Shown: positions 3,861 to 50,074 of the stretch, piece after piece
How positions within the stretch are numbered: position 1 is the stretch's first letter
Layout of the letters: every line of letters starts with the position of its first letter
NCBI GenBank assembly: GCA_964016885.1
Contig: OZ024740.1
Span: forward strand, 109,430,001-109,494,000
Length of the DNA stretch: 64,000 nucleotides
From: Eledone cirrhosa
Lineage: Eukaryota
Direction: 5' to 3'
Translations under genes and position numbers: made by a program
Notes under the pieces: model-generated
What the model saw: only the letters and a program-made list of their open reading frames with translations
Told to the model about the DNA's origin: nothing
The model's database searches: none

Positions 3861-6084
3861 CAGTTCACAACAATGGCAAATTCAAAACACAGCATTAGGC
3901 AAATACTTCTCTCTCTCTGTTTATTATAAAAGGTAAGAGAGATGGTATCATGTATACTTTTTCATTTTATTACATCATTCTCTTACGTACATTTCAAAGA
4001 CATCAAAGTTGTGGTGGAACAATTATTTGATGTGTTGTCATCAGACAAGTATTTAGGTGTAATGTTATTTTGCTTTTTGTTATGCTCGCCATAGTATGGA
4101 ACTTGATGTTAGCAATCCGACTACACACACATGCACATGTACGCGTGTGTGTGTGTGTGTATATATATATAAGGGTTTAGAATGATATCCAAGTGATTTT
4201 GATCTCATTGTTTACAATTTGTTCAACAAATTCCTTTGGAGCACAGGCATAGGATTAATTGTAATACAACATTCCCGGCCAGAAGCTTAAGCTATGAAAA
4301 CTATCTAATTATTGTATTGACAGATTAACATATAAGTATAAAGGGCAGTGTGCTCAAGTGCAGAGATGCTATAGAAATAGCTTATAAAATAGGAAGATAT
4401 ATATATATATACATATGGTAAACATGTTGACTAACTAGGGTTGCATATATGCACCAATCAATGAATAATGATGCAATTCGATTTAAGCACTCAACATCAT
4501 GTATTTTCTTTGAAATATTTGTCAGTCACTGATGTAATATATGTAGAATAAGGAAAATAGTTCAATCAATCATACAACCAGTCATGCAATATCACCTGAC
4601 AGCATCTTATGTAATAAGGTTTTGAAGCAATACAATCTAAGGACAAAGGAACTGTAAGATGCTGTCTGATGATATTGTGTGACTGGTTGTATGATTGAAC
4701 AATCAGAGAGCCATGATTGGCATTGAAATATGTATCATAGCTTTGTTACTAAAGGACTTAACATCTAAACAAAACTTCGCATTTTCGCTATTCTCTCTCT
4801 CTCTCCACACACTTTTTCTCAAACCACTTAGTTACGAGTCATAATTATAGTCAGCACCGTAAACACAGTTATGAACACACACATTCATACATATATATAT
4901 ACACATATACAACAGGCTTCTGCACTTTCTGTCTCCCAGATTTCACTCACAAGGCATCAAACTCAGGCTCTAGTAGATACTAGCCAACTGGGACTGAACC
5001 CCAAACGAAGTGGTTATGAAGTGAACTCCTTAACTATGCAACCATGCCTGTACCTACCTACCTACCTACATACATAACACTTCTGTTTTATTTCTATATT
5101 TTTATTTATTTATCTGTAAAGACCTCATCTGATATAAACAATTCCCAGGTTGGGTTTCCTGTACTGTTAATTCAAACAAACAACTTTTAAGTCACTTTGA
5201 TCTTCAACAAATATTTTCTTCCTGATAAAAATAGATATGAATATAGAAAACGTTTATAACAGTAGCAGAATTAATTCTCAGCTCAAATCTATTTAATTTG
5301 TTTGAAATTAAGGAAAAAATATTTCCCCATCTTACACCATCATCATCATCATCATCATTTTATGCCTGCTATTCCACACTTGCATGGGTTGGACGGGTCT
5401 TTTTTAGCTCAGCATCTCTCCACTTGTCTCGTTCCTTTGTCATCTTCTTTGTGAGTTTTGGCAATTTAAGATCAGCTCTCACCACCTCTGCCTCTGCTTC
5501 ATTCCACTTGGATTTCTTGGCACTTCTTCATCTTGTGATCATCATTCATGCATATCACATGTTCATAGCAATGCAGTCTTCTGTCTTGCACATTACATTT
5601 GATTCCTCTTATACTCAGTTTCTCTCTCATACATATATACATACATATATGTATGCGCATATGTATACGTATATATATATTATGTATATGTATGTATACA
5701 TATATTCATTATCATCATTGTTTTTACATCCGTTTCTCCATGCATGCATGGGTTGGACATTTATCCATATATTAATATTATATATGTGTGTATAATATGG
5801 ATTTACAATAAGAATGAATATCATGTTTATGTAGAAAAATGAAAAAGATACAATACATAATGAAATCTGAGAATGAAACCAGTTTATATTTCATGTCTAT
5901 TCTTAGTAACCACCACCACCACCACTACTACTACTACTTAAAATAACACCAACATAGTAATAACTATGATCTCTTTTATTGTGCACACAAGTACAAGATG
6001 TAGGGGACATTCCAAAGTAAGGCTTACATTAAGTAAAGAGAGGGGGATATCATCATCACCATCATGAACAAAAACAACAGAAAT

Positions 6085-15867: not shown

Positions 15868-15908
15868 ATTTATATATATATATTTATATATATATATTTA
15901 TATATATA
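15546..15908. repeat. (TA)n microsatellite with TTTA interruptions
   Basis: Directly visible. Confidence 0.95.
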
Positions 15909-16176
15909 TAAACGGAAAAAATGAAACGATATTTCATTTCCCACTCTTAGTACGGCTGTTACTTAAATATAAGTATGTACACGTACATACATATATGTAT
16001 ACCGACGTACAGTAGTATGTATATATATATATACATACATGCACACATATATATATGCACGTATGGATTCACCGAACATTTATTATAATGCTCGGTGTGT
16101 TTGTAAACAAACATCCCGTATTAAGCCGTAGTGTCTAGCAACCACCGTTGCTCGTTTGTTCAACACTGACAAAGGA

Positions 16177-16219
16177 ACGCTGTACTAGTTTCAAGCTTGT
16201 TAGCTATCGTCAGCAACGT
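16177..16219 (-). ncRNA. Type I hammerhead ribozyme (422-bp family, copy 1)
   Basis: Minus strand ACGTTG-CTGACGA-T-AGCT-AACA-AGCT-T-GAAA-CTAG-TA-CAGCGT; stem I pairs, palindromic stem III ACTAGT, GUA cleavage triplet. Confidence 0.85.
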
Positions 16220-16598
16220 ATACCTTCCTGCCAGATTGTTGAACGTATATACTTACCTTATGCATATTAACGGCTGAGTAGCCCAATATGCATATCGAGT
16301 GGGTTAATCGGCCGGGTGCACCGAAAACGATAAACGGAAAAAATGAAACGATATTTCATTTCCCACTCTTAGTACGGCTGTTACTTAAATATAAGTATGT
16401 ACACGTACATACATATATGTATACCGACGTACAGTAGTATGTATATATATATATACATACATGCACACATATATATATGCACGTATGGATTCACCGAACA
16501 TTTATTATAATGCTCGGTGTGTTTGTAAACAAACATCCCGTATTAAGCCGTAGTGTCTAGCAACCACCGTTGCTCGTTTGTTCAACACTGACAAAGGA

Positions 16599-16641
16599 AC
16601 GCTGTACTAGTTTCAAGCTTGTTAGCTATCGTCAGCAACGT
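16599..16641 (-). ncRNA. Type I hammerhead ribozyme (422-bp family, copy 2)
   Basis: Identical to 16177-16219, offset 422. Confidence 0.85.
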
Positions 16642-16903
16642 ATACCTTCCTGCCAGATTGTTGAACGTATATACTTACCTTATGCATATTAACGGCTGAG
16701 TAGCCCAATATGCATATCGAGTGGGTTAATCGGCCGGGTGCACCGAAAACGATAAACGGAAAAAATGAAACGATACACACCGAGCATTATAATAAATGTT
16801 CGGTGAATCCATACGTGCATATATATATGTGTGCATGTATGTATATATATATATACATACTACTGTACGTCGGTATACATATATGTATGTACGTGTACAT
16901 ACT

Positions 16904-16935
<32 letters not shown>

Positions 16936-17168
16936 TATATATATATATTTATATATATATATATTTATATATATATATATTTATATATATATATATTTAT
17001 ATATTAGAAATTGGAATAAATGCTCTGAAATAGCGATATATATGTGAATATAGACATAGAATATTCGAAAATATTCTGTATGTTTATAATAAACATTTTG
17101 AAGACCTAATCGCTATAGAATAGAATACGTCACGTATTACAATTAGATTCTCGATAAAAGCAAGGGAA

Positions 17169-18141
17169 GTAATCTACGCGTTTCATTCTCGTTAGAAATC
17201 ATCAGGACTACATATCCAGTGCTTTTATCGAGAATGACACAGCTAGAGACTTATAGAATACTTAGCTGTGTACAGGAACTGGTTTGAAAGAGCGGTTGCC
17301 GGTCCGGCAGAAATTAGAAATTGGAATAAATGCTCTGAAATAGCGATATATATGTGAATATAGACATAGAATATTCGAAAATATTCTGTATGTTTATAAT
17401 AAACATTTTGAAGACCTAATCGCTATAGAATAGAATACGTCACGTATTACAATTAGATTCTCGATAAAAGCAAGGGAAGTAATCTACGCGTTTCATTCTC
17501 GTTAGAAATCATCAGGACTACATATCCAGTGCTTTTATCGAGAATGACACAGCTAGAGACTTATAGAATACTTAGCTGTGTACAGGAACTGGTTTGAAAG
17601 AGCGGTTGCCGGTCCGGCAGAAATTAGAAATTGGAATAAATGCTCTGAAATAGCGATATATATGTGAATATAGACATAGAATATTCGAAAATATTCTGTA
17701 TGTTTATAATAAACATTTTGAAGACCTAATCGCTATAGAATAGAATACGTCACGTATTACAATTAGATTCTCGATAAAAGCAAGGGAAGTAATCTACGCG
17801 TTTCATTCTCGTTAGAAATCATCAGGACTACATATCCAGTGCTTTTATCGAGAATGACACAGCTAGAGACTTATAGAATACTTAGCTGTGTACAGGAACA
17901 GGTTTGAAAGAGCGGTTGCCGGTCCGGCAGAAATTAGAAATTGGAATAAATGCTCTGAAATAGCGATATATATGTGAATATAGACATAGAATATTCGAAA
18001 ATATTCTGTATGTTTATAATAAACATTTTGAAGACCTAATCGCTATAGAATAGAATACGTCACGTATTACAATTAGATTCTCGATAAAAGCAAGGGAAGT
18101 AATCTACGCGTTTCATTCTCGTTAGAAATCATCAGGACTAC
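17169..18141 (-). ncRNA. Four type I hammerhead ribozymes (17169-17211, 17479-17521, 17789-17831, 18099-18141)
   Basis: Reverse complements of the motif at 18446-18488. Confidence 0.87.
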
Positions 18142-18445
18142 ATATCCAGTGCTTTTATCGAGAATGACACAGCTAGAGACTTATAGAATACTTAGCTGTG
18201 TACAGGAACTGGTTTGAAAGAGCGGTTGCCGGTCCGGCAGAAATTAGAAATTGGAATAAATGCTCTGAAATAGCGATATATATGTGAATATGTCTATATT
18301 CACATATATATCGCTATTTCAGAGCATTTATTCCAATTTCTAATTTCTGCCGGACCGGCAACCGCTCTTTCAAACCAGTTCCTGTACACAGCTAAGTATT
18401 CTATAAGTCTCTAGCTGTGTCATTCTCGATAAAAGCACTGGATAT

Positions 18446-19418
18446 GTAGTCCTGATGATTTCTAACGAGAATGAAACGCGTAGATTACTTCCCTTGCTTT
18501 TATCGAGAATCTAATTGTAATACGTGACGTATTCTATTCTATAGCGATTAGGTCTTCAAAATGTTTATTATAAACATACAGAATATTTTCGAATATTCTA
18601 TGTCTATATTCACATATATATCGCTATTTCAGAGCATTTATTCCAATTTCTAATTTCTGCCGGACCGGCTACCGCTCTTTCAAACCAGTTCCTGTACACA
18701 GCTAAGTATTCTATAAGTCTCTAGCTGTGTCATTCTCGATAAAAGCACTGGATATGTAGTCCTGATGATTTCTAACGAGAATGAAACGCGTAGATTACTT
18801 CCCTTGCTTTTATCGAGAATCTAATTGTAATACGTGACGTATTCTATTCTATAGCGATTAGGTCTTCAAAATGTTTATTATAAACATACAGAATATTTTC
18901 GAATATTCTATGTCTATATTCACATATATATCGCTATTTCAGAGCATTTATTCCAATTTCTAATTTCTGCCGGACCGGCTACCGCTCTTTCAAACCAGTT
19001 CCTGTACACAGCTAAGTATTCTATAAGTCTCTAGCTGTGTCATTCTCGATAAAAGCACTGGATATGTAGTCCTGATGATTTCTAACGAGAATGAAACGCG
19101 TAGATTACTTCCCTTGCTTTTATCGAGAATCTAATTGTAATACGTGACGTATTCTATTCTATAGCGATTAGGTCTTCAAAATGTTTATTATAAACATACA
19201 GAATATTTTCGAATATTCTATGTCTATATTCACATATATATCGCTATTTCAGAGCATTTATTCCAATTTCTAATTTCTGCCGGACCGGCAACCGCTCTTT
19301 CAAACCAGTTCCTGTACACAGCTAAGTATTCTATAAGTCTCTAGCTGTGTCATTCTCGATAAAAGCACTGGATATGTAGTCCTGATGATTTCTAACGAGA
19401 ATGAAACGCGTAGATTAC
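18446..19418 (+). ncRNA. Four type I hammerhead ribozymes (18446-18488, 18756-18798, 19066-19108, 19376-19418)
   Basis: GTAGTC-CTGATGA-T-TTCT-AACG-AGAA-T-GAAA-CGCG-TA-GATTAC; stem I GTAGTC/GATTAC extended by a perfect 16-bp helix ATTCTCGATAAAAGCA/TGCTTTTATCGAGAAT; palindromic stem III ACGCGT. Confidence 0.88.
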
Positions 19419-19540
19419 TTCCCTTGCTTTTATCGAGAATCTAATTGTAATACGTGACGTATTCTATTCTATAGCGATTAGGTCTTCAAAATGTTTATTA
19501 TAAACATACAGAATATTTTCGAATATTCTATGTCTATATT

Positions 19541-19588
19541 TATATATATATATATTTATATATATATATATTTATATATATATATATT

Positions 19589-19619
<31 letters not shown>

Positions 19620-19622
19620 ATT

Positions 19623-19693
<71 letters not shown>

Positions 19694-19728
19694 ATTTATA
19701 TATATATATATTTATATATATATATATT

Positions 19729-19795
<67 letters not shown>

Positions 19796-19810
19796 ATTTA
19801 TATATATATA

Positions 19811-19893
<83 letters not shown>

Positions 19894-20034
19894 ATTTATA
19901 TATATATATTTATATATATATATTTATATATATATATTTATATTTATATATATTTATTTATATATATTTATATATATATATTTATATATATTTATTTATA
20001 TATATTTATATATATATATTTATATATATATATA
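19541..20034. repeat. (TA)n with TTTA interruptions
   Basis: Directly visible. Confidence 0.95.
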
Positions 20035-23000
20035 CGCAATCCAAAACTTCAGAGTTGGTACCATGAATGTAGGCACCTTAAAGGGTCGCTCTAACGAGGT
20101 TGTAGAAATGCTTGAACGTAAGGAGGTCGATGTTTGTTGTATTCAAGAGACCAGGTGGAGGGGAGGGTCGGCTAGATTCATCGTGGGTAAAGAACGATGC
20201 TATAAGCTTTTCTGGGTGGGAAATGACAATGGGTTGGGTGGGGTAGGAATCATGGTAGCAGAAAAGTGGGCAGATAAGATAATAGACGTAAATAGAGTGA
20301 ACGACAGAATAATTAAAATAAGACTTGTCCTCAATAAAACTACGGTGACAGTAATATCTGCGTACGCACCCCAATCCGGACTGCCCGGCGCTATAAAAGA
20401 CAGATTCTACGAAACACTGATGCTCGCTACCTCCCAAATAACCGACAGTGACTATATAGTTATTGCAGGCGACCTAAATGGTCACGTTGGACAACATTGT
20501 GACGGCTATGACGGAATCCATGGAGGCTATGGGTTCGGTACTAGAAATGAGGAAGGCTCCAGAATCCTGGAATTCTGCGACGCAAATAACTTAACTATCT
20601 GTAACACTAACTTCAAAAAACGAGACAATCACTTGATCACCTATAGATCGGGGGAACACACAAGCCAGGTAGATTATATCCTTACCAGAAGACGTGACAG
20701 AGTGTCTGTTGTTAACACTAAATCCCACCCCCATGAAGAATTCACCTCCCAACATAGACTGATAATTAGCGACCTCATAGTCAGGACGAGACGTACTAGA
20801 CAGCGGAAGAGGACTATCCTCAGGAGAAAAATATGGAAGCTAAAGGACCCCATAGCCAGAAATAAATTTCAAAGCATATTACTTGACGCTTTCGACAGTA
20901 AGGAAGAGCAATTAGAGTCGTATAATATAGAGGAACAGTGGGAATTCCTGAGAGCAAACCTGCTGACGGCGGCAGACGAAGTCTGTGGCTGGAGCAGGCC
21001 TGTAGGTAGGAGGAGAGTAACATGGTGGTGGAACAGTAAGGTGGAGGAGTCAATTAAGGCCAAAAAGCAGGCTTGGAAAGTATGGCGGGATGGGGGAAGT
21101 AGAGAAGACTATCAAGTGGCCAGGAGGGAAGCTAGGAGACAAGTGTACTTCGCAAGAAGGGAAGCAGAGGAAAGAAAGTTAAAGCATGTTCTACAACGTG
21201 AGGACCAAAAACGTGAGGTGTTCAGGATTGCCAGGCAATGTGTCAAGGAAAACCGTGATATTGTCGGGGAGAAGTGTGTACTTAACGATGATGGCATACT
21301 TGCCATCACCGACGCTGATAAGAAGGTAGCTTGGAAGTGTCACTACGAAAGGCTTCTAAATGAGGAGAACAAATGGGAGAAAGACAGTCTCCCCCACATC
21401 GACCCAATAGAGGGACCAGCAGTGTTAGTTGAAGGTAGTATAATAAGTAAGGCAATCAAAGATATGAAGACGGGTAAGGCGGCTGGGCCTTCGGAAATAG
21501 TTGCTGAGATGCTGAAGGCATCTGGTTCGGTGGGACACACCATGGTCACCCGGATAGTTAACCAAGTCGTACAGAATGGGGTTGTTCCGAAGGAATGGCG
21601 TAGCAGCATCATCGTTAACTGCTATAAGGGAAAAGGAGATGCCCTAGATAGGAGTAACTATAGAGGCATTAAATTAATCGACCAGGTCATGAAGGTCACG
21701 GAAAAAGTAATAGCGCAACTAATCAGAGAGAGAATTGATCTAGATGAAATGCAGTTCGGGTTTGTGTCAGGCAAAAGTACCACAGACGCTCTTTTCATTG
21801 TACGACAACTACAGAAGAAGTACCTAGCTAAAAGTAAACCCCTATACTTAGCTTTCGTCGACTTGGAGAAAGCCTTCGACAGAGTCCCCCGCTCCATTAT
21901 CTGGTGGGCTCTTAGAAAACTAGGTGTTGACGAATGGCTTGTGAGAGCTAAACAAGCCATGTATAAAGAAACAGTCAGTAAGGTTAGAATTAACAACGAA
22001 TATAGTGAAGAGTTTAGCGTAAAAGTTGGTGTCCATCAGGGCTCTGTTCTTAGCCCCCTACTATTTATTATTGCCCTTCAGGCTATAACAGAGGAGTTCA
22101 AGACCGGCTGCCCATGGGAACTCCTATACGCAGATTATCTAACGCTCATAGCTGAATCAATGACCGAACTAGAGAAGAAATTCCAAACATGGAAGCACGG
22201 CCTAGAATCAAAAGGCCTTAAAATTAACCTGGCTAAGACTAAAGTTCTAGTTTGTAGGAAAGAAAATAAGGCGGCAGTCCCATCGGGGAAATGGCCATGC
22301 TCAGTGTGTAGGAAAGGCGTAGGTAGAAACTCCATTTTATGTCCCAAATGCAAAGTATGGGTGCATAAAAGATGTAGTGGGATCACAGGTAAGCTAACTA
22401 AGAACATAGATTTTACATGTGGCCGGTGCTCTGGTGCAATAAGTAGCAGCAAGTGCCCACAAAATACTAGCTCCTTCAACTGCGCAGAGGGTTCTATAGA
22501 AATAGTGGACAGCTTCCGTTATCTGGGTGACAAAATCAGCAGTGGGGGAGGGTGCTCTGAAAGTACAGTAGCTAGAGTCAGAACTGGATGGAAAAAAGTT
22601 CAGAGAGCTTATACCACTATTAGCCGCTAGAGGGTTCTCCCTAAAAATGAAAGGCAGGTTATACGATGCCTGTATACGAACAGCAATGCTGCATGGCAGT
22701 GAGACCTGGGCATTGTGTGCAGAGGATATACGCAGACTAGAGAGGAACGAAGCTTGCATGCTCCGCTGGATGTGCAATAGTAATATACGTGAACGGCAAA
22801 GCATAAACGAACTAAGGAAAAAATTAAAAATAAGAGGGATCAGATGTTGTTTACTCGAGAGAAGGCTACGTTGGTACGGTCACGTGATGCGCATGAAAGA
22901 CGACAGCTGTATAACAAAGTGCAGGGCAATAAAGATAGACGGTAGCCACGGAGTAGGCAGACCCAGAAAAACATGGGACGAGCTGATAAATTCCGACCTC

Positions 23001-23590: not shown

Positions 23591-23605
23591 ATATTTATAT
23601 ATATA

Positions 23606-24327
23606 TATTTCGTTTCTGAATTTGTTTAGCAAGATTCTTTATCTGAAATCGTGTGTTGAAACCGATATTGTTATACTTTGGGAGGGTCATGTTGCCAATA
23701 AGAAACACACGCACCAGTTGCTTTCACTTCAATTTAATTTATTATATATTTATAAATTTACAAATTTATAAATTTCTGGTTGGTTGGTTGGTTCCACAAC
23801 CAGATAGTTGTTTATATATATATAGTCATAGTTCTTTCGTCACACACTCTGTGACCTCTTCAGTGACTGGGGATTTCTTTCTTCGTTTCTGTGCCTTTCC
23901 TTTCTTCTATCCTACGCCATTTTGTTTGTGTGTGGGTTGCGTGCTCCGTTTGCGCATGCGCCACATCCGGGTGTCTGTGTGTGTTTGTGTTCATTGTGTT
24001 CACACAAACACACACAGACACCCGGATGTGGCGCATGCGGAAACGGAGCACGCAACCCACACACAAACAAAATGGCGTAGGATAGAAGGAAGGAAAGGCA
24101 CAGAAACGAAGAAAGAAATCCCCAGTCACTGAAGAGGTCACAGAGTGTGTGACGAAAGAACTATGACTATATATATATAAACAACTATCTGGTTGTGGAA
24201 CCAACCAACCAACCAGAAATTTATAAATTTGTAAATTTATAAATATATAATAAATTAAATTGAAGTGAAAGCAACTGGTGCGTGTGTTTCTTATTGGCAA
24301 CATGACCCTCCCAAAGTATAACAATAT
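23606..24327. mobile_element. Palindromic PLE-pLTR/retrozyme-like insertion (326-bp arms, 11-nt spacer, 59-nt extra left tail)
   Basis: 23665-23990 is the reverse complement of 24002-24327 with about 2 mismatches; flanked by TA tracts. Confidence 0.88.
24124..24168 (+). ncRNA. Hammerhead-like motif, slightly non-canonical (mirror copy 23824-23868 on minus strand)
   Basis: AGTCA-CTGAAGA-G-GTCACA-GAGTG-TGTGAC-GAAA-GAAC-TA-TGACT; stems I and II pair; stem III imperfect; one unpaired G before stem II. Confidence 0.65.
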
Positions 24328-24938
<611 letters not shown>

Positions 24939-25989
24939 TCATCATCATCGACGTTTAACGTCCGTGTTCCACGCTTGCATGGGTTTGGACGGGGGTAGTC
25001 CCACTTGAGGCAAGAGTGATTGTCTTGCTCGCATAGGACTGTCTGGCAGGTTTTCTACAGTTGGATGCCCTTCCTAACACCAACCACATTTACAGTGTGG
25101 GTCTGGGAGGTTTTTACCGTGTTGCCTACACGGCCACATTACAGCGTGGACTGTGTGTTTTTTGTCGTGACACCTACACGATCTCATTTGTTTCGGCCTG
25201 GATGGCGCGGCACCAACATAACTTTACATAGAACGGGGTGGTGTGGATGGGGTGGTGGTGGTGGGACGGGGTGTATTTTGTTAGAGATGCCTACTGGCTG
25301 GAGTAGGTTTTACTATATATTTAGGTAAGGCGGGTCTTCTCTGTTACTGAGTACCGCCAAAGGTCTCGGTCCAGTGACATTGTCTTGGAGAGGTGTAAGT
25401 GTGTGATGTCGGAGTTTATCAGCTCGTCCCAGGTTTTTCTAGGTCTGCCTATTCCGTGACTACCGTTTATCTTTATTGCCCTGCACTTTGTTATACAGCT
25501 ATCGACTTTCATGCGCATCACGTGTCCATACCAACGTAGCCTTCTCTCGAGTAAACAACATCTGATCCCTCTTATCTCTAATTTTTTCCTTAGTTCGTTT
25601 ATGCTTTGCCGTTCACGTATATTACTGTTACACATCCAGCGGAGCATGCAAGCTTCGTTCCTCTCTAGTCTGCGTATATCCTCTGCACACAATGCCCAGG
25701 TCTCACTGCCATGCAGCATTGCTGTTCGTATGCAGGCATCGTACAACCTGCCTTTCATTTTTAGGGAGAACCCTTTAGCAGCTAATAGTGGTATAAGCTC
25801 TCTGAACTTTTCCCAACCAGTTCTGACTCTAGCTACAGTACTTTCAGAGCACCCTCCCCCACTGCTGATTTTATCGCCCAGGTAACGGAAGCTGTCCACT
25901 ATTTCTATAGAACCCTCTGCGCAGTTGAAAGAGCTAGTATTTTGTGGGCACTTGCTGCTACTTATTGCACCAGAACACCGGCCACATGT
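24939..25989 (-). mobile_element. RTE LINE 3' fragment (about 1 kb), 5'-truncated
   Basis: SFRYLGD ... [10 protein letters not shown] ... GRPRKTW; 3' UTR lacks the internal duplication. Confidence 0.93.
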
Positions 25990-26022
25990 ATATTTATATA
26001 TATATATTTATATATATATATT

Positions 26023-26077
<55 letters not shown>

Positions 26078-26438
26078 ATATATTTATATTTATATATATA
26101 TATATTTATATTTATATATTTATATATATATATTTATATATATATATTTATTTATATATATATATTTATATATATATATATATATATTTATTCATATATA
26201 TATATTTATATATATATATTTATATATATATATTTATATATATATATTTATATATATATATTTATATATATATATATATTTATATATTTATATATATATT
26301 TATATATTTATATATATATTTATATATATATATTTATATATTTATATATATATTTATATATATATTTATATATTTATATATTTATTTATATATTTATTTA
26401 TATATTTATATATATATTTATATATTTATATATATATT

Positions 26439-26473
<35 letters not shown>

Positions 26474-26512
26474 ATTTATATATTTATATATATATATATT
26501 TATATATACATA

Positions 26513-26557
<45 letters not shown>

Positions 26558-27230
26558 ATATATTTATATATATATATTTATATATATATATTTATATATC
26601 TTTATATATATATATTTATTTATATATATATGTATATATATATATTTATTTATATATATATATTTATATATATATATTTATTTATATATATATATTTATA
26701 TATATATATTTATTTATATATATTTATATATATATATTTATATATATATATTTATTTATATATATATATATTTATTTATATATATATATATTTATTTATA
26801 TATATATATATATTTATTTATATATATATATATATTTATTTATATATATATATATATATTTATTTATATATATATATATTTATTTATATATATATATATA
26901 TTTATTTATATATATATATATATTTATTTATATATATATATATATTTATTTATATATATATATATATTTATTTATATATATATATATATTTATTTATATA
27001 TATATATATATTTATTTATATATATATATATATTTATTTATATATATATATATATTTATTTATATATATATATATATTTATTTATATATATATATATATT
27101 TATTTATATATATATATATATTTATTTATATATATATATATATTTATTTATATATATATATATATTTATTTATATATATATATATTTATTTATATATATA
27201 TATATTTATTTATATATATATATATTTATT

Positions 27231-27264
<34 letters not shown>

Positions 27265-27286
27265 TATTTATATATATATATTTATT

Positions 27287-27318
<32 letters not shown>

Positions 27319-27336
27319 TATTTATATATATTTATT

Positions 27337-27370
<34 letters not shown>

Positions 27371-27374
27371 TATT

Positions 27375-27410
<36 letters not shown>

Positions 27411-27414
27411 TATT

Positions 27415-27450
<36 letters not shown>

Positions 27451-27454
27451 TATT

Positions 27455-27486
<32 letters not shown>

Positions 27487-27557
27487 TATATATATATATT
27501 TATTTATATATATATATTTATGTATATTTATATATATATATTTATATATATATATAT
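25990..27557. repeat. 1.6-kb TA microsatellite with TTTA/TTTATTTA higher-order units
   Basis: Directly visible. Confidence 0.95.
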
Positions 27558-37250: not shown

Positions 37251-37732
37251 TGCGTCCACACAAGATAGCGGTTTTGTTTCAGTGGCGTGAAAAGGTATTC
37301 GACAACTAGAAACAGCAGTCAAAATTCTTCTCAACAGAAATAGCTCTACAATTAAGGAGCCGTATATATATATCTAAGTCCAAAATTAAGATAAATGAAT
37401 TAAATGAATTTAATCTAAATCGAAATCATGGGTGTCATGACATAATGCATGCGCCATATATCCTGAGAGTTTAAGCTCAAAGATAAATAAATCTGAGCAT
37501 ATTATAATAACTAGAGATTGATTAACATATAAAAATACATGAATAATCACAGGAGATAATTTAAGCTTGCGTGTAACTGCGCATAGCTAGTTTAGGCAAT
37601 ATTTACCTTTAAGTGTGATTAACTTTAGCTGATATTATCCTTTCCTTGTTGACAATCCAATAATATCCACTTTCCGTGACTTACCATCTGATTAATTGGT
37701 GAAATATATTTCTTTAATGGGATATATACAAG

Positions 37733-44439
<6,707 letters not shown>

Positions 44440-44786
44440 GGAGGCATATGGCTTAGTGGTTAGAGCATTGGCCTTGCAATCGAAAGGTTGTGAGTTCAAT
44501 TCTCAGACCGGGTGATGTGTTGTTTCCTTGAGCAAGAGACTTTATTTCACATTGCTCCAGTTTACTCAGCTGTAGAAATGAGATGATAGGGACTGGGGTC
44601 TCTATCATCCCACTGCAAAGTGGTCGTGGAGGTGCCACGGCAAAAAAGCACCCAGCACTCGCTGTAAATGAGGTTGGTGTTAGGAAGGGCATCCAGCTGT
44701 AGAAATCATGCCAGAATCAGTTCCCGTCCCACCCTTGCAAGCAGGGAAAAGCAGACGTAAAATGAAATGATGAAATGATGATGATG

Positions 44787-44788
<2 letters not shown>
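44440..44788 (+). mobile_element. Full-length SINE family B: tRNA-derived head, central core, RTE-derived 3' tail, (GAT)n
   Basis: A box TGGCTTAGTGG, B box GAGTTCAATTC, core GTTTCCTTGAGCAAGAGACTT, tail GGTGTTAGGAAGGGCATCCAGCTGTAGAAA identical to the RTE 3' UTR. Confidence 0.9.
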
Positions 44789-48964
<4,176 letters not shown>

Positions 48965-50074
48965 TGTTGTCTCTTTCTCTTAATTTCGAGTATATTTTTT
49001 TGACCGGCCACCTTCCTGGTGGCAAGTCTGTAAAAGAAAAGAAATTGTCATCCCTTGAATCGCAAGAATGTTTTGCAAATTTTGAAGGTGCCAGCTATCG
49101 CAGCCATTTGTAGACTATGAATTAGGGAGCTGCGCTTTTTGTCCGCAAATCCAAGTTCAGTCATACTTTGGTCCAAGCGGGTTGGTATATAACCCGTAGC
49201 ACCAATAATGATGGGTATGAAGCTAAAGGTGTATCTTGGATACTGGATTTGTAAACTCCTCATCAATGGTCCGTAGATGTCCTCCTTCTCCTGTATTTTT
49301 CTGACAACGTTTACATCAAGTGGGCAGCTGATCTCCACAACAGAACACGTTTTCAATGTGTGGTCCCAAACTACAATATCAGGCCGGTTGTGCTTTAATT
49401 TGGTGGCAGTTTTTATCTTCCGGTTCCACCAGTATTCCTTAGTGCCATCTGTCTCAATATATTCTTCCTCGTTTGTTGTTAATTTTGTTTTCCGAAGTGC
49501 GTTCCAGATGGTTCTAGCTATCCCATCGTGTCTCATGGGGAGGTAGTAGCGAGATGACATTCTTTCGCAGCTGGCAACAATGTGGCTTACATCCTCGATC
49601 TTTGTTTTACATAGCCTACATTTATTGTCAGCTGCTGGCCCTCCTCTTTTGTGCAGCAGATATTTGGTAGGGAGTTCTTGTTCCTGTATTGCATAGAGAT
49701 ATCCCTCAAGGTGTGATGTCATAAACTTGTCGGAACTCCATGCCAGGCTTTTTGAGTGGTTTATCCCCTCTATGGTCTGTGTTTTACGCCTCAAGTATCC
49801 ATGCACAACTTTTTCTGTAAATTGGTCAATTTTTTTATCTTCTTTGAACATTGAATAGGATCTTCCGATTTCTCTGGGTGAGAGATTTATATCAGGCTTT
49901 ATTCCATATCTCTCCTCCAGATCAGTCGCTATTCTAATGATATTTCTTTTTTCATAGTCATAAACCTGGGCAAGATGGTTGCCAACCTTTTTCCTCTGTT
50001 GAAGGTGTTGCTTCAGTGTTACTATCCGGGTCTCATATGTTGTTAATATTGATTTTAGACCCCGGCCACCTTCC
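48965..50074 (-). mobile_element. R4/Dong-like non-LTR retrotransposon, 3' part (CCHC knuckle plus restriction-like endonuclease)
   Basis: Frame open from about 50073 (EGGRGLKSI) to 49048; AIQEQ, CRLC..E..SHI..SC, RHD, RPDIVVWD..VEISCP..K..Y. Confidence 0.88.

Follow-up and report, generated by a model that had tools for sequence, protein, structure and literature searches.

A 310-nt hammerhead-ribozyme repeat in Eledone cirrhosa whose inverted arrays have insertion ends of the Penelope-like type

Metazoan non-LTR retrozymes are known from coral, mussel and axolotl, where self-cleavage and circular RNAs have been demonstrated (Cervera and de la Pena, 2020; PMC7229834). The 310-nt repeat of Eledone cirrhosa described here shares with them short tandem units of low GC content (150-450 nt with G+C under 50% in those elements), a type I hammerhead with a weak palindromic helix III in every unit, the lack of a long open reading frame (ORF), and coexistence with Penelope-like elements (PLEs). 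However, cleavage and circles were observed there, whereas our element is known from sequence alone. The main text of that paper describes direct tandems only, and the words "inverted" and "octopus" do not occur in it; the 310-nt element, in contrast, mostly forms two diverging arms with fixed ends in (TA)n. Circular templates are put forward in the same text, with PLEs as possible helpers. For vertebrates, the text of a preprint proposes retrozymes to be non-autonomous users of PLE machinery on the basis of co-occurrence and homology to the PLE pseudo-LTR (pLTR) (Li, Clavereau, & Pollet, 2026; 10.64898/2026.07.22.740005). In our family the evidence is a footprint of the reaction instead, and pLTR homology was not found. 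The terms "tail", "inversion" and "orientation" are absent from that preprint text.

PLE insertions, as described in the available text of PMC8557442, comprise partial tandems with an inverted 5′-truncated copy and a tail of 30-40 bp at one end, and often lie in microsatellites; (TA)n targets are given for the octopus Naiad and Hydra families in the part of the supplement of Craig et al. available to us. In the available text of PMC11167929, purified PLE protein from Anolis is described as cleaving and extending the two strands of AT-rich DNA, and as starting at a pair of internal RNA sites between which the tail lies. The EN+ PLEs in the accessible parts of these papers (Poseidon PAc, Neptune, Naiad, Hydra; PMC11167929, PMC8557442) are like our element in the partial tandem with an inverted 5′-truncated copy, the 30-40 bp tail, the two reverse transcription start sites downstream of the hammerhead, and the AT-rich or (TA)n target. 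They are unlike it in that the 310-nt element has no reverse transcriptase (RT)-endonuclease ORF, carries a canonical hammerhead with an extended stem I and not the minimal pLTR type, repeats up to 27 identical short units per arm, and has no detectable homology to the pLTR compared. The literature, as far as it was accessible, names as open questions what mobilises animal retrozymes and how the tandem and inverted PLE insertions and their tail originate.

The Avsunviroidae and viroid-like satellites resemble the repeat in size, in the predicted self-paired circle, and in a cloud of close haplotypes that keep the ribozyme fold, but the 310-nt unit has its ribozyme on one polarity only and spreads via genomic DNA copies. 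In a search of the accessible literature, with few subscription papers and with the main texts of PMC7229834 and the preprint, inverted, tailed retrozyme arrays or cephalopod retrozymes were not found. The class is a known one, and it is the insertion anatomy and the within-family selection pattern that appear, from this search, to be absent from print.

The window is the whole stretch of 64,000 nt that was analysed (assembly GCA_964016885.1, contig OZ024740.1, positions 109,430,001 to 109,494,000). Its positions 17003-19540 hold two diverging arms of the 310-nt unit, 8.2 units in all, between two (TA)n tracts. Unit numbering starts at the base after the predicted cleavage site, and the features are as follows.

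16899-17002, unstranded: left (TA)n target tract, with TTT interruptions
17003-18291, minus strand: left arm of 4.16 units, ending at unit position 172 on the outside (site B) and at 124 on the inside
17003-17046, minus strand: 44-nt "tail" (unit positions 129-172) at the left outer end, missing from the other end; equivalent of the PLE tail in the available text of PMC11167929 and PMC8557442
18289-18291, unstranded: inversion junction, 3-nt overlap of the arms
18289-19540, plus strand: right arm of 4.04 units, ending at unit position 117 on the inside and at 128 on the outside (site A)
18446-18488, plus strand: type I hammerhead, first of four on this strand (the rest follow at 310, 620 and 930 nt), with cleavage predicted after 18482
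18099-18141, minus strand: type I hammerhead, first of four on this strand (the rest 310, 620 and 930 nt leftward); predicted cleavage after 18105
18422-18510, plus strand: ribozyme with its 16-bp stem I extension (18422-18437 pairs with 18495-18510)
18483-18792, plus strand: one cleavage-to-cleavage monomer of 310 nt, the predicted circle; ~34.5% G+C, taken from the unit at 19103-19412
19541-20034, unstranded: right (TA)n target tract, oriented like the left one (unmirrored)

An earlier, sequence-only reading of this DNA had described near-identical 310-nt units diverging from a centre, with array ends 128 and 172 nt past a cleavage site. Both descriptions hold: a minus-strand arm is followed by a plus-strand arm, the 8.2 units carry 3 substitutions in total relative to one reference unit, and the ends map to unit positions 128 and 172. 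Cleavage is predicted after 18482, 18792, 19102 and 19412 on the plus strand and after 18105, 17795, 17485 and 17175 on the minus strand. The TTT interruptions number 6 in the left tract and 33 in the right (AAA, 0 and 0); the flanks are thus not mirror images, which excludes a fold-back read. Both outer ends lie inside (TA)n, where a target-site duplication, which in metazoan retrozymes exceeds 4 bp when present, cannot be read. The coding capacity of the unit is one 30-codon ATG frame and none longer. This frame spans unit positions 79-171 (for example, window 18561-18653), covers both start sites and has its stop at site B; it might be a relic or chance, since PLE start sites sit in the early ORF.

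With a descriptor search, eight type I hammerheads were found in the array and another four in the rest of the window; when the window was shuffled 20 times, every shuffle gave 0. The core given in the sequence-only reading is complete in 8 of 8 units, and the hammerheads lie on one polarity of the unit only. The cleavage site after 18482 was predicted again at the same base, and stem III, ACGCGU, is self-complementary as had been claimed; RNA of two units is predicted to fold as a double hammerhead through this stem. The monomer fold was more stable than 100 of 100 shuffles (z = -3.6; -5.9 for the ribozyme region). Among the hairpins proposed earlier, the 16-bp helix, CACAGCUA and AGAAUAUU are present in the predicted folds, but TGCCGG/CCGGCA forms 4-5 pairs and not 6. 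In a covariance-model scan, suggested as a check, Rfam models gave no hammerhead match to the unit either at the gathering score or at E up to 10. The other Rfam matches to the unit were set aside as miRNA-like hairpin noise and further sub-threshold matches. Units in the window have a U.U mismatch at the base of stem II (10.1/11.1), replaced by A-U in ~4,100 units of the genome. The mismatch is shared with axolotl HHR_Amex2, which also has U.U under helix II and cleaves, better as a dimer (PMC7229834, in the text available).

The same TA region contains, at 15908-16908, a second retrozyme-like element with a 422-nt unit. It has two type I hammerheads on the minus strand (predicted cleavage after 16605 and 16183) and a 134-nt inverted arm, and it ends at unit positions 275 and 216, 59 nt apart; its ribozyme core pattern has 14,197 matches in the genome, in several unit lengths. 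This ribozyme has the same architecture as that of the 310-nt unit in different letters. When six sequences of the two families were compared, 90 of 90 cells were paired and 8 of 15 pairs were changed on both sides; in slid alignment controls, 0-1 pairs were. Such covariation supports a real ribozyme, with two lineages giving support short of formal proof.

Family size was measured as exact pattern matches across the genome. The window's 43-nt ribozyme has 4,033 exact copies in the 3.0 Gb genome, and a 23-nt stretch common to more variants has 15,730. The genome-wide count that the sequence-only reading had called for is thus 15,730 units in roughly 1,500 insertions at many loci, and its own proviso, a unit confined to this locus, falls away. 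Its retrozyme reading gains from the genome-wide dispersal, the tandem 310-nt units of low G+C content, the hammerhead in each unit, and the pattern of selection on the ribozyme described below; these data support a large, young family of metazoan non-LTR retrozymes. A supposed sister family turned out to be the same family, with 306-308 of 310 nt identical. An older, diverged relative occurs at locus L189 (2440-2865), where an inverted element with a degenerate hammerhead is 78% identical over unit positions 59-154 and ends at sites homologous to those of the 310-nt element; unit positions 59-172 are its best-kept part. The retention of this segment together with the homologous ends suggests that the start-site region is the recognised part.

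At least half of the sampled unit words were present in 20 of the 24 sequencing runs listed (17 studies, 18 organisms under code); none of the runs listed with unit words was an RNA run. Units in runs labelled as other organisms were 98.7-100% identical. Four runs were compared: the contigs of X4 and X5 (340 nt) showed one difference, that of X7 (331 nt) showed none, and X20 gave a 313-nt match with four differences, embedded in other sequence. In three of the four, depth was 3-10, which is little for a repeat of high copy number. The length of 340 nt corresponds to a single unit with an overlap, and fits a tandem as well as a circle. A flank motif from one of the compared runs was not matched anywhere in the window. 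These units may reflect horizontal spread, but may also come from close relatives, prey or contamination.

The anatomy seen in the window proved to be general. On the forward strand genome-wide, unit sequence gives way to TA 686 times at site A (128-139) and 800 times at site B (163-172), compared with 1 at a control site; reverse-strand counts were inflated by several gap lengths per end, so only forward counts were used, and doubling them gives ~1,400-1,600 insertions, a lower bound. The first 10 loci in listing order included 9 that were inverted with the same polarity and a centre of their own. In the first 86 Mb of contig 1, among the 89 distinct ends listed, 70 form diverging pairs within 12 kb and 19 are unpaired. 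All 35 pairs are A+B (21 with A on the left, 14 with B on the left), and none is A+A or B+B. We examined 40 further loci, 28 picked as pairs and 12 as unpaired ends. Among the 51 loci mapped, 42 are two-armed, all of them A+B, and 9 are one-armed or have a very short second arm, one being interrupted by N. The end mapping proposed earlier thus places the outer ends at two fixed internal sites, in (TA)n. The tail is 26-44 nt long, most often 35. The 42 junctions comprise 22 with overlaps of 1-5 nt (of which 1-2 nt may arise by chance), 1 with an overlap of 16, 4 blunt, and 15 with inserts, several copied from adjacent unit sequence. At locus L159 (1499-1770), 272 nt of G+C-rich foreign sequence are caught between the arms; the junction at L148 (~2043-2220) is complex, with two additional short inverted pieces that reuse the same breakpoints. 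An AUAUCG motif lies near several start sites, and overlaps the TA target.

A PLE of the same genome follows the same rule. The window itself has, at ~23605-24326, a truncated inverted copy of a young autonomous PLE with a minimal hammerhead in each arm (predicted cleavage after 23829 on the minus strand and 24163 on the plus strand). This family has 7,529 exact tail matches in the genome, and its best 150 copies are 98-100% identical. In its long frames the RT matches Pfam weakly and the GIY-YIG domain scores above the Pfam cut-off, with a CX4CX2C linker also present; the best named homolog of the protein, from Octopus vulgaris, is 65% identical. From the linker and the C-terminal endonuclease, the family may be labelled "Neptune-like", a label given without a tree. 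Its copies end within one of two short stretches of the ORF, +21 to +26 and +81 to +86, and 16 of 18 two-arm insertions have one end in each. In both the 310-nt element and this PLE, the outer ends are antisense when read 5′ to 3′ from the flank, as flank-primed cDNA would be. The simplest reading is two primings, one per end of the cut, followed by joining of the cDNAs. The PLE tail is ~60 nt, as against 26-44 nt in the 310-nt element.

The 310-nt element therefore has the PLE-type features of an inverted 5′-truncated copy, two fixed start sites and a (TA)n target, but lacks an ORF with RT and GIY-YIG, and so is not an autonomous PLE though its ends are PLE-type. The sequence-only reading had called it protein-free, which is correct in that it encodes no protein; the ends, the inversion and the target being of PLE type, it cannot be protein-independent. 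Likewise, the palindrome and permuted ends described earlier are present, and are traced to the insertion reaction and not to RNA replication. Against the pLTR and ORF start of the young PLE, the unit showed no significant DNA similarity (38, 126 and 52 of 200 shuffles scored as high), and it had none to PLE sequence in 30 of at least 150 listed GIY-YIG loci. Those 30 contain several other, older PLE families.

Several further elements were seen in passing. The other PLE families, at loci L188-L217, have a C-terminal GIY-YIG and are older, with ~72-95% DNA identity in the pairs shown, and a degenerate motif resembling a hammerhead, its stem III palindromic, was spotted by eye in the 3′ region of the L189 PLE. 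In the upstream pLTR of the young PLE at L101 (~5480-5700, minus strand), 32 of 34 differences from the window copy are sense-strand changes of A to G, which likely reflect ADAR hyper-editing of an RNA that was then fixed by reverse transcription. A LINE frame for an APE-type endonuclease (PF03372, above the cut-off) follows the right TA tract at 20063-20398, and the same frame lies past the PLE end in L101. The window also contains TA-based simple repeats of 11 kb (37722-48965) and 1.6 kb (25989-27557); TA tracts of this genome are very long and carry nested PLE-type insertions.

The variants within arrays were sorted in 50 loci with 473 units. Substitutions that are array-wide were taken as inherited from the template, and those private to a unit as having arisen during or after insertion. 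The count disregards the L184 variant that is mixed, any site with a coverage below 3, and a 1-nt insertion in stem I that was inherited; the ribozyme alignment was made without L137, in which stem I does not pair, and L066, which fell outside the extraction pattern. In the 43-nt ribozyme, inherited substitutions were compatible with the fold in 8 of 8 cases, compared with 32% of all possible substitutions (p ~1e-4, with the tolerated classes, N7, loop II and 10.1/11.1 free and G.U allowed, set after the variants were seen), and 5 of 5 private substitutions break it. These classes follow the hammerhead consensus. In the 16-bp extension helix, pairing is kept in 2 of 2 inherited and 0 of 6 private substitutions. 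There were 63 private substitutions in 146,572 bases (0.043%), which indicates a very young family; this figure and the single haplotype of each insertion agree with the recent activity proposed earlier.

Both arms of an insertion derive from the same sequence. Among 27 loci with two full arms, 26 have one haplotype on both, with 17 haplotypes present (3.3 agreements expected, at most 11 in 10,000 shuffles). Conversion in place is an unlikely source of this agreement, because most private variants are confined to one unit. Arms pass the cleavage site in 80 of 84 cases and exceed one unit in 76, the longest being 8,459 nt or 27.3 units, and inner ends fall within 5 nt of the cleavage site in 1 of 84 compared with 3 expected. 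Since arms cross this site and inner ends are not gathered there, the template was continuous at that point, being either a circle or an uncleaved multimer. New variants are fixed in all units of both arms (up to 7 in L180), and such array-wide fixation needs a one-unit bottleneck, which favours the circle. The earlier proposal that a monomer is copied over many rounds is consistent with the read-through arms of up to 27 units and the one haplotype per insertion. Mixed arrays count against pure copying of one monomer: in L184 a variant occurs in 9 of 13 units, in L175 one variant occupies the outer unit of both arms, and in L156, L158 and the window array a private variant is repeated in two units each. 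In L158 two variants recur seven units apart, which may be a sign of DNA-level duplication.

We consider it likely that the inverted array arises when a PLE RT copies one predicted circular monomer from both ends of a (TA)n cut. Transcripts of an array would self-cleave as the double hammerheads predicted above, releasing 310-nt monomers, and a host ligase would close these into circles, as in the axolotl and mussel retrozymes. A PLE endonuclease would then cut both (TA)n strands, so that each DNA 3′ end could prime at one fixed RNA site, ~130 or ~165 nt past the cleavage site; the sites, the one-per-end rule and the target are observed, and the enzyme is presumed. Each cDNA would run around the presumed circle several times, leaving the arm lengths and read-through that we observe. 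Finally, the cDNA ends would be joined at variable points with short overlaps or inserts by some repair route, yielding the inversion and the tail. The young PLE is a candidate helper only, as it differs from the repeat in sequence and tail length; the ends of the 422-nt element, 59 nt apart, match its tail more closely than do those of the 310-nt element. A bolder form of the proposal, which we regard as doubtful, is that a viroid-sized RNA circle replicates through the genome by seizing a dimeric PLE enzyme, which copies this one circle from the two broken DNA ends simultaneously. Each array would then be the fossil of one RNA, the ribozyme would be selected at every passage, and the near-identical units in runs labelled as other organisms would mean that the circle moves between species too.

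A two-ended insertion of PLE type could also take up a long, uncleaved linear multimer, as in Chlamydomonas MRC1, with arrays lengthened by DNA duplication or template jumps and with no circle at all. The Anolis PLE inserts uncleaved RNA in vitro, its ribozyme being dispensable (PMC11167929, available text), cleavage was absent in 8 of 9 retrozyme dimers of Xenopus (bioRxiv 10.64898/2026.07.22.740005, preprint text), non-autonomous Chlamys elements make multicopy head-to-tail insertions (PMC8557442, available text), and the outer-unit variant of L175 and the seven-unit repeats of L158 fit such a multimer. However, fixation of up to 7 variants through a whole array (L180), together with private variants that mostly stay in single units, points to a single-unit bottleneck; inherited variants spare the ribozyme and private ones do not; and copying that truncates at the 5′ end would shorten arrays, yet arms reach 27 units. 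On this balance we think the uncleaved multimer unlikely.

The other explanations fare worse than this multimer or our preferred copying of a circle. In L1-type twin priming, one outer end is the RNA's 3′ end and the second priming site is variable. Were a LINE enzyme to mobilise the RNA here, the APE-type frame directly after the right TA tract, the many LINE frames in the loci examined, and the 1-5 nt overlaps at 22 of 42 junctions would find an explanation, but both outer ends are fixed internal sites that may occupy either side (21 A+B, 14 B+A), there is no poly(A), and an autonomous PLE follows the same end rule, which makes this very unlikely. Spread as a satellite at the DNA level, by unequal exchange, extrachromosomal circles or fold-back repair with the hammerhead as a passenger, would account for variants that recur inside arrays, and the hairpins of the unit could seed fold-back (the centre of the window array sits in one). 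It leaves unexplained the young insertions that are scattered and end at two fixed sites in (TA)n, their fixed polarity relative to the ribozyme strand and their variable centres, as well as an RNA fold conserved among inherited variants; the A+B rule largely refutes it, and we rate it as highly improbable. Assembly is difficult where a perfect palindrome lies between simple repeats, and an assembly or fold-back artefact was the other proviso attached to the sequence-only reading. It is practically negligible given the unmirrored flanks, the unequal arms, a centre and haplotype particular to each locus, and the same anatomy in 42 of 51 mapped loci.

With one start site used per end and a single template haplotype in each event, the insertions suggest a target-primed reaction that is two-ended, and sequence evidence that spread requires the ribozyme fold comes from the way inherited variants differ from private ones. 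The 310-nt family connects the two questions raised in the literature, as a non-coding ribozyme repeat here bears, in ~1,500 near-pristine insertions, the footprint of a PLE-type reaction. For an in vitro PLE assay, its 310-nt unit offers a minimal substrate on which the start sites are mapped.
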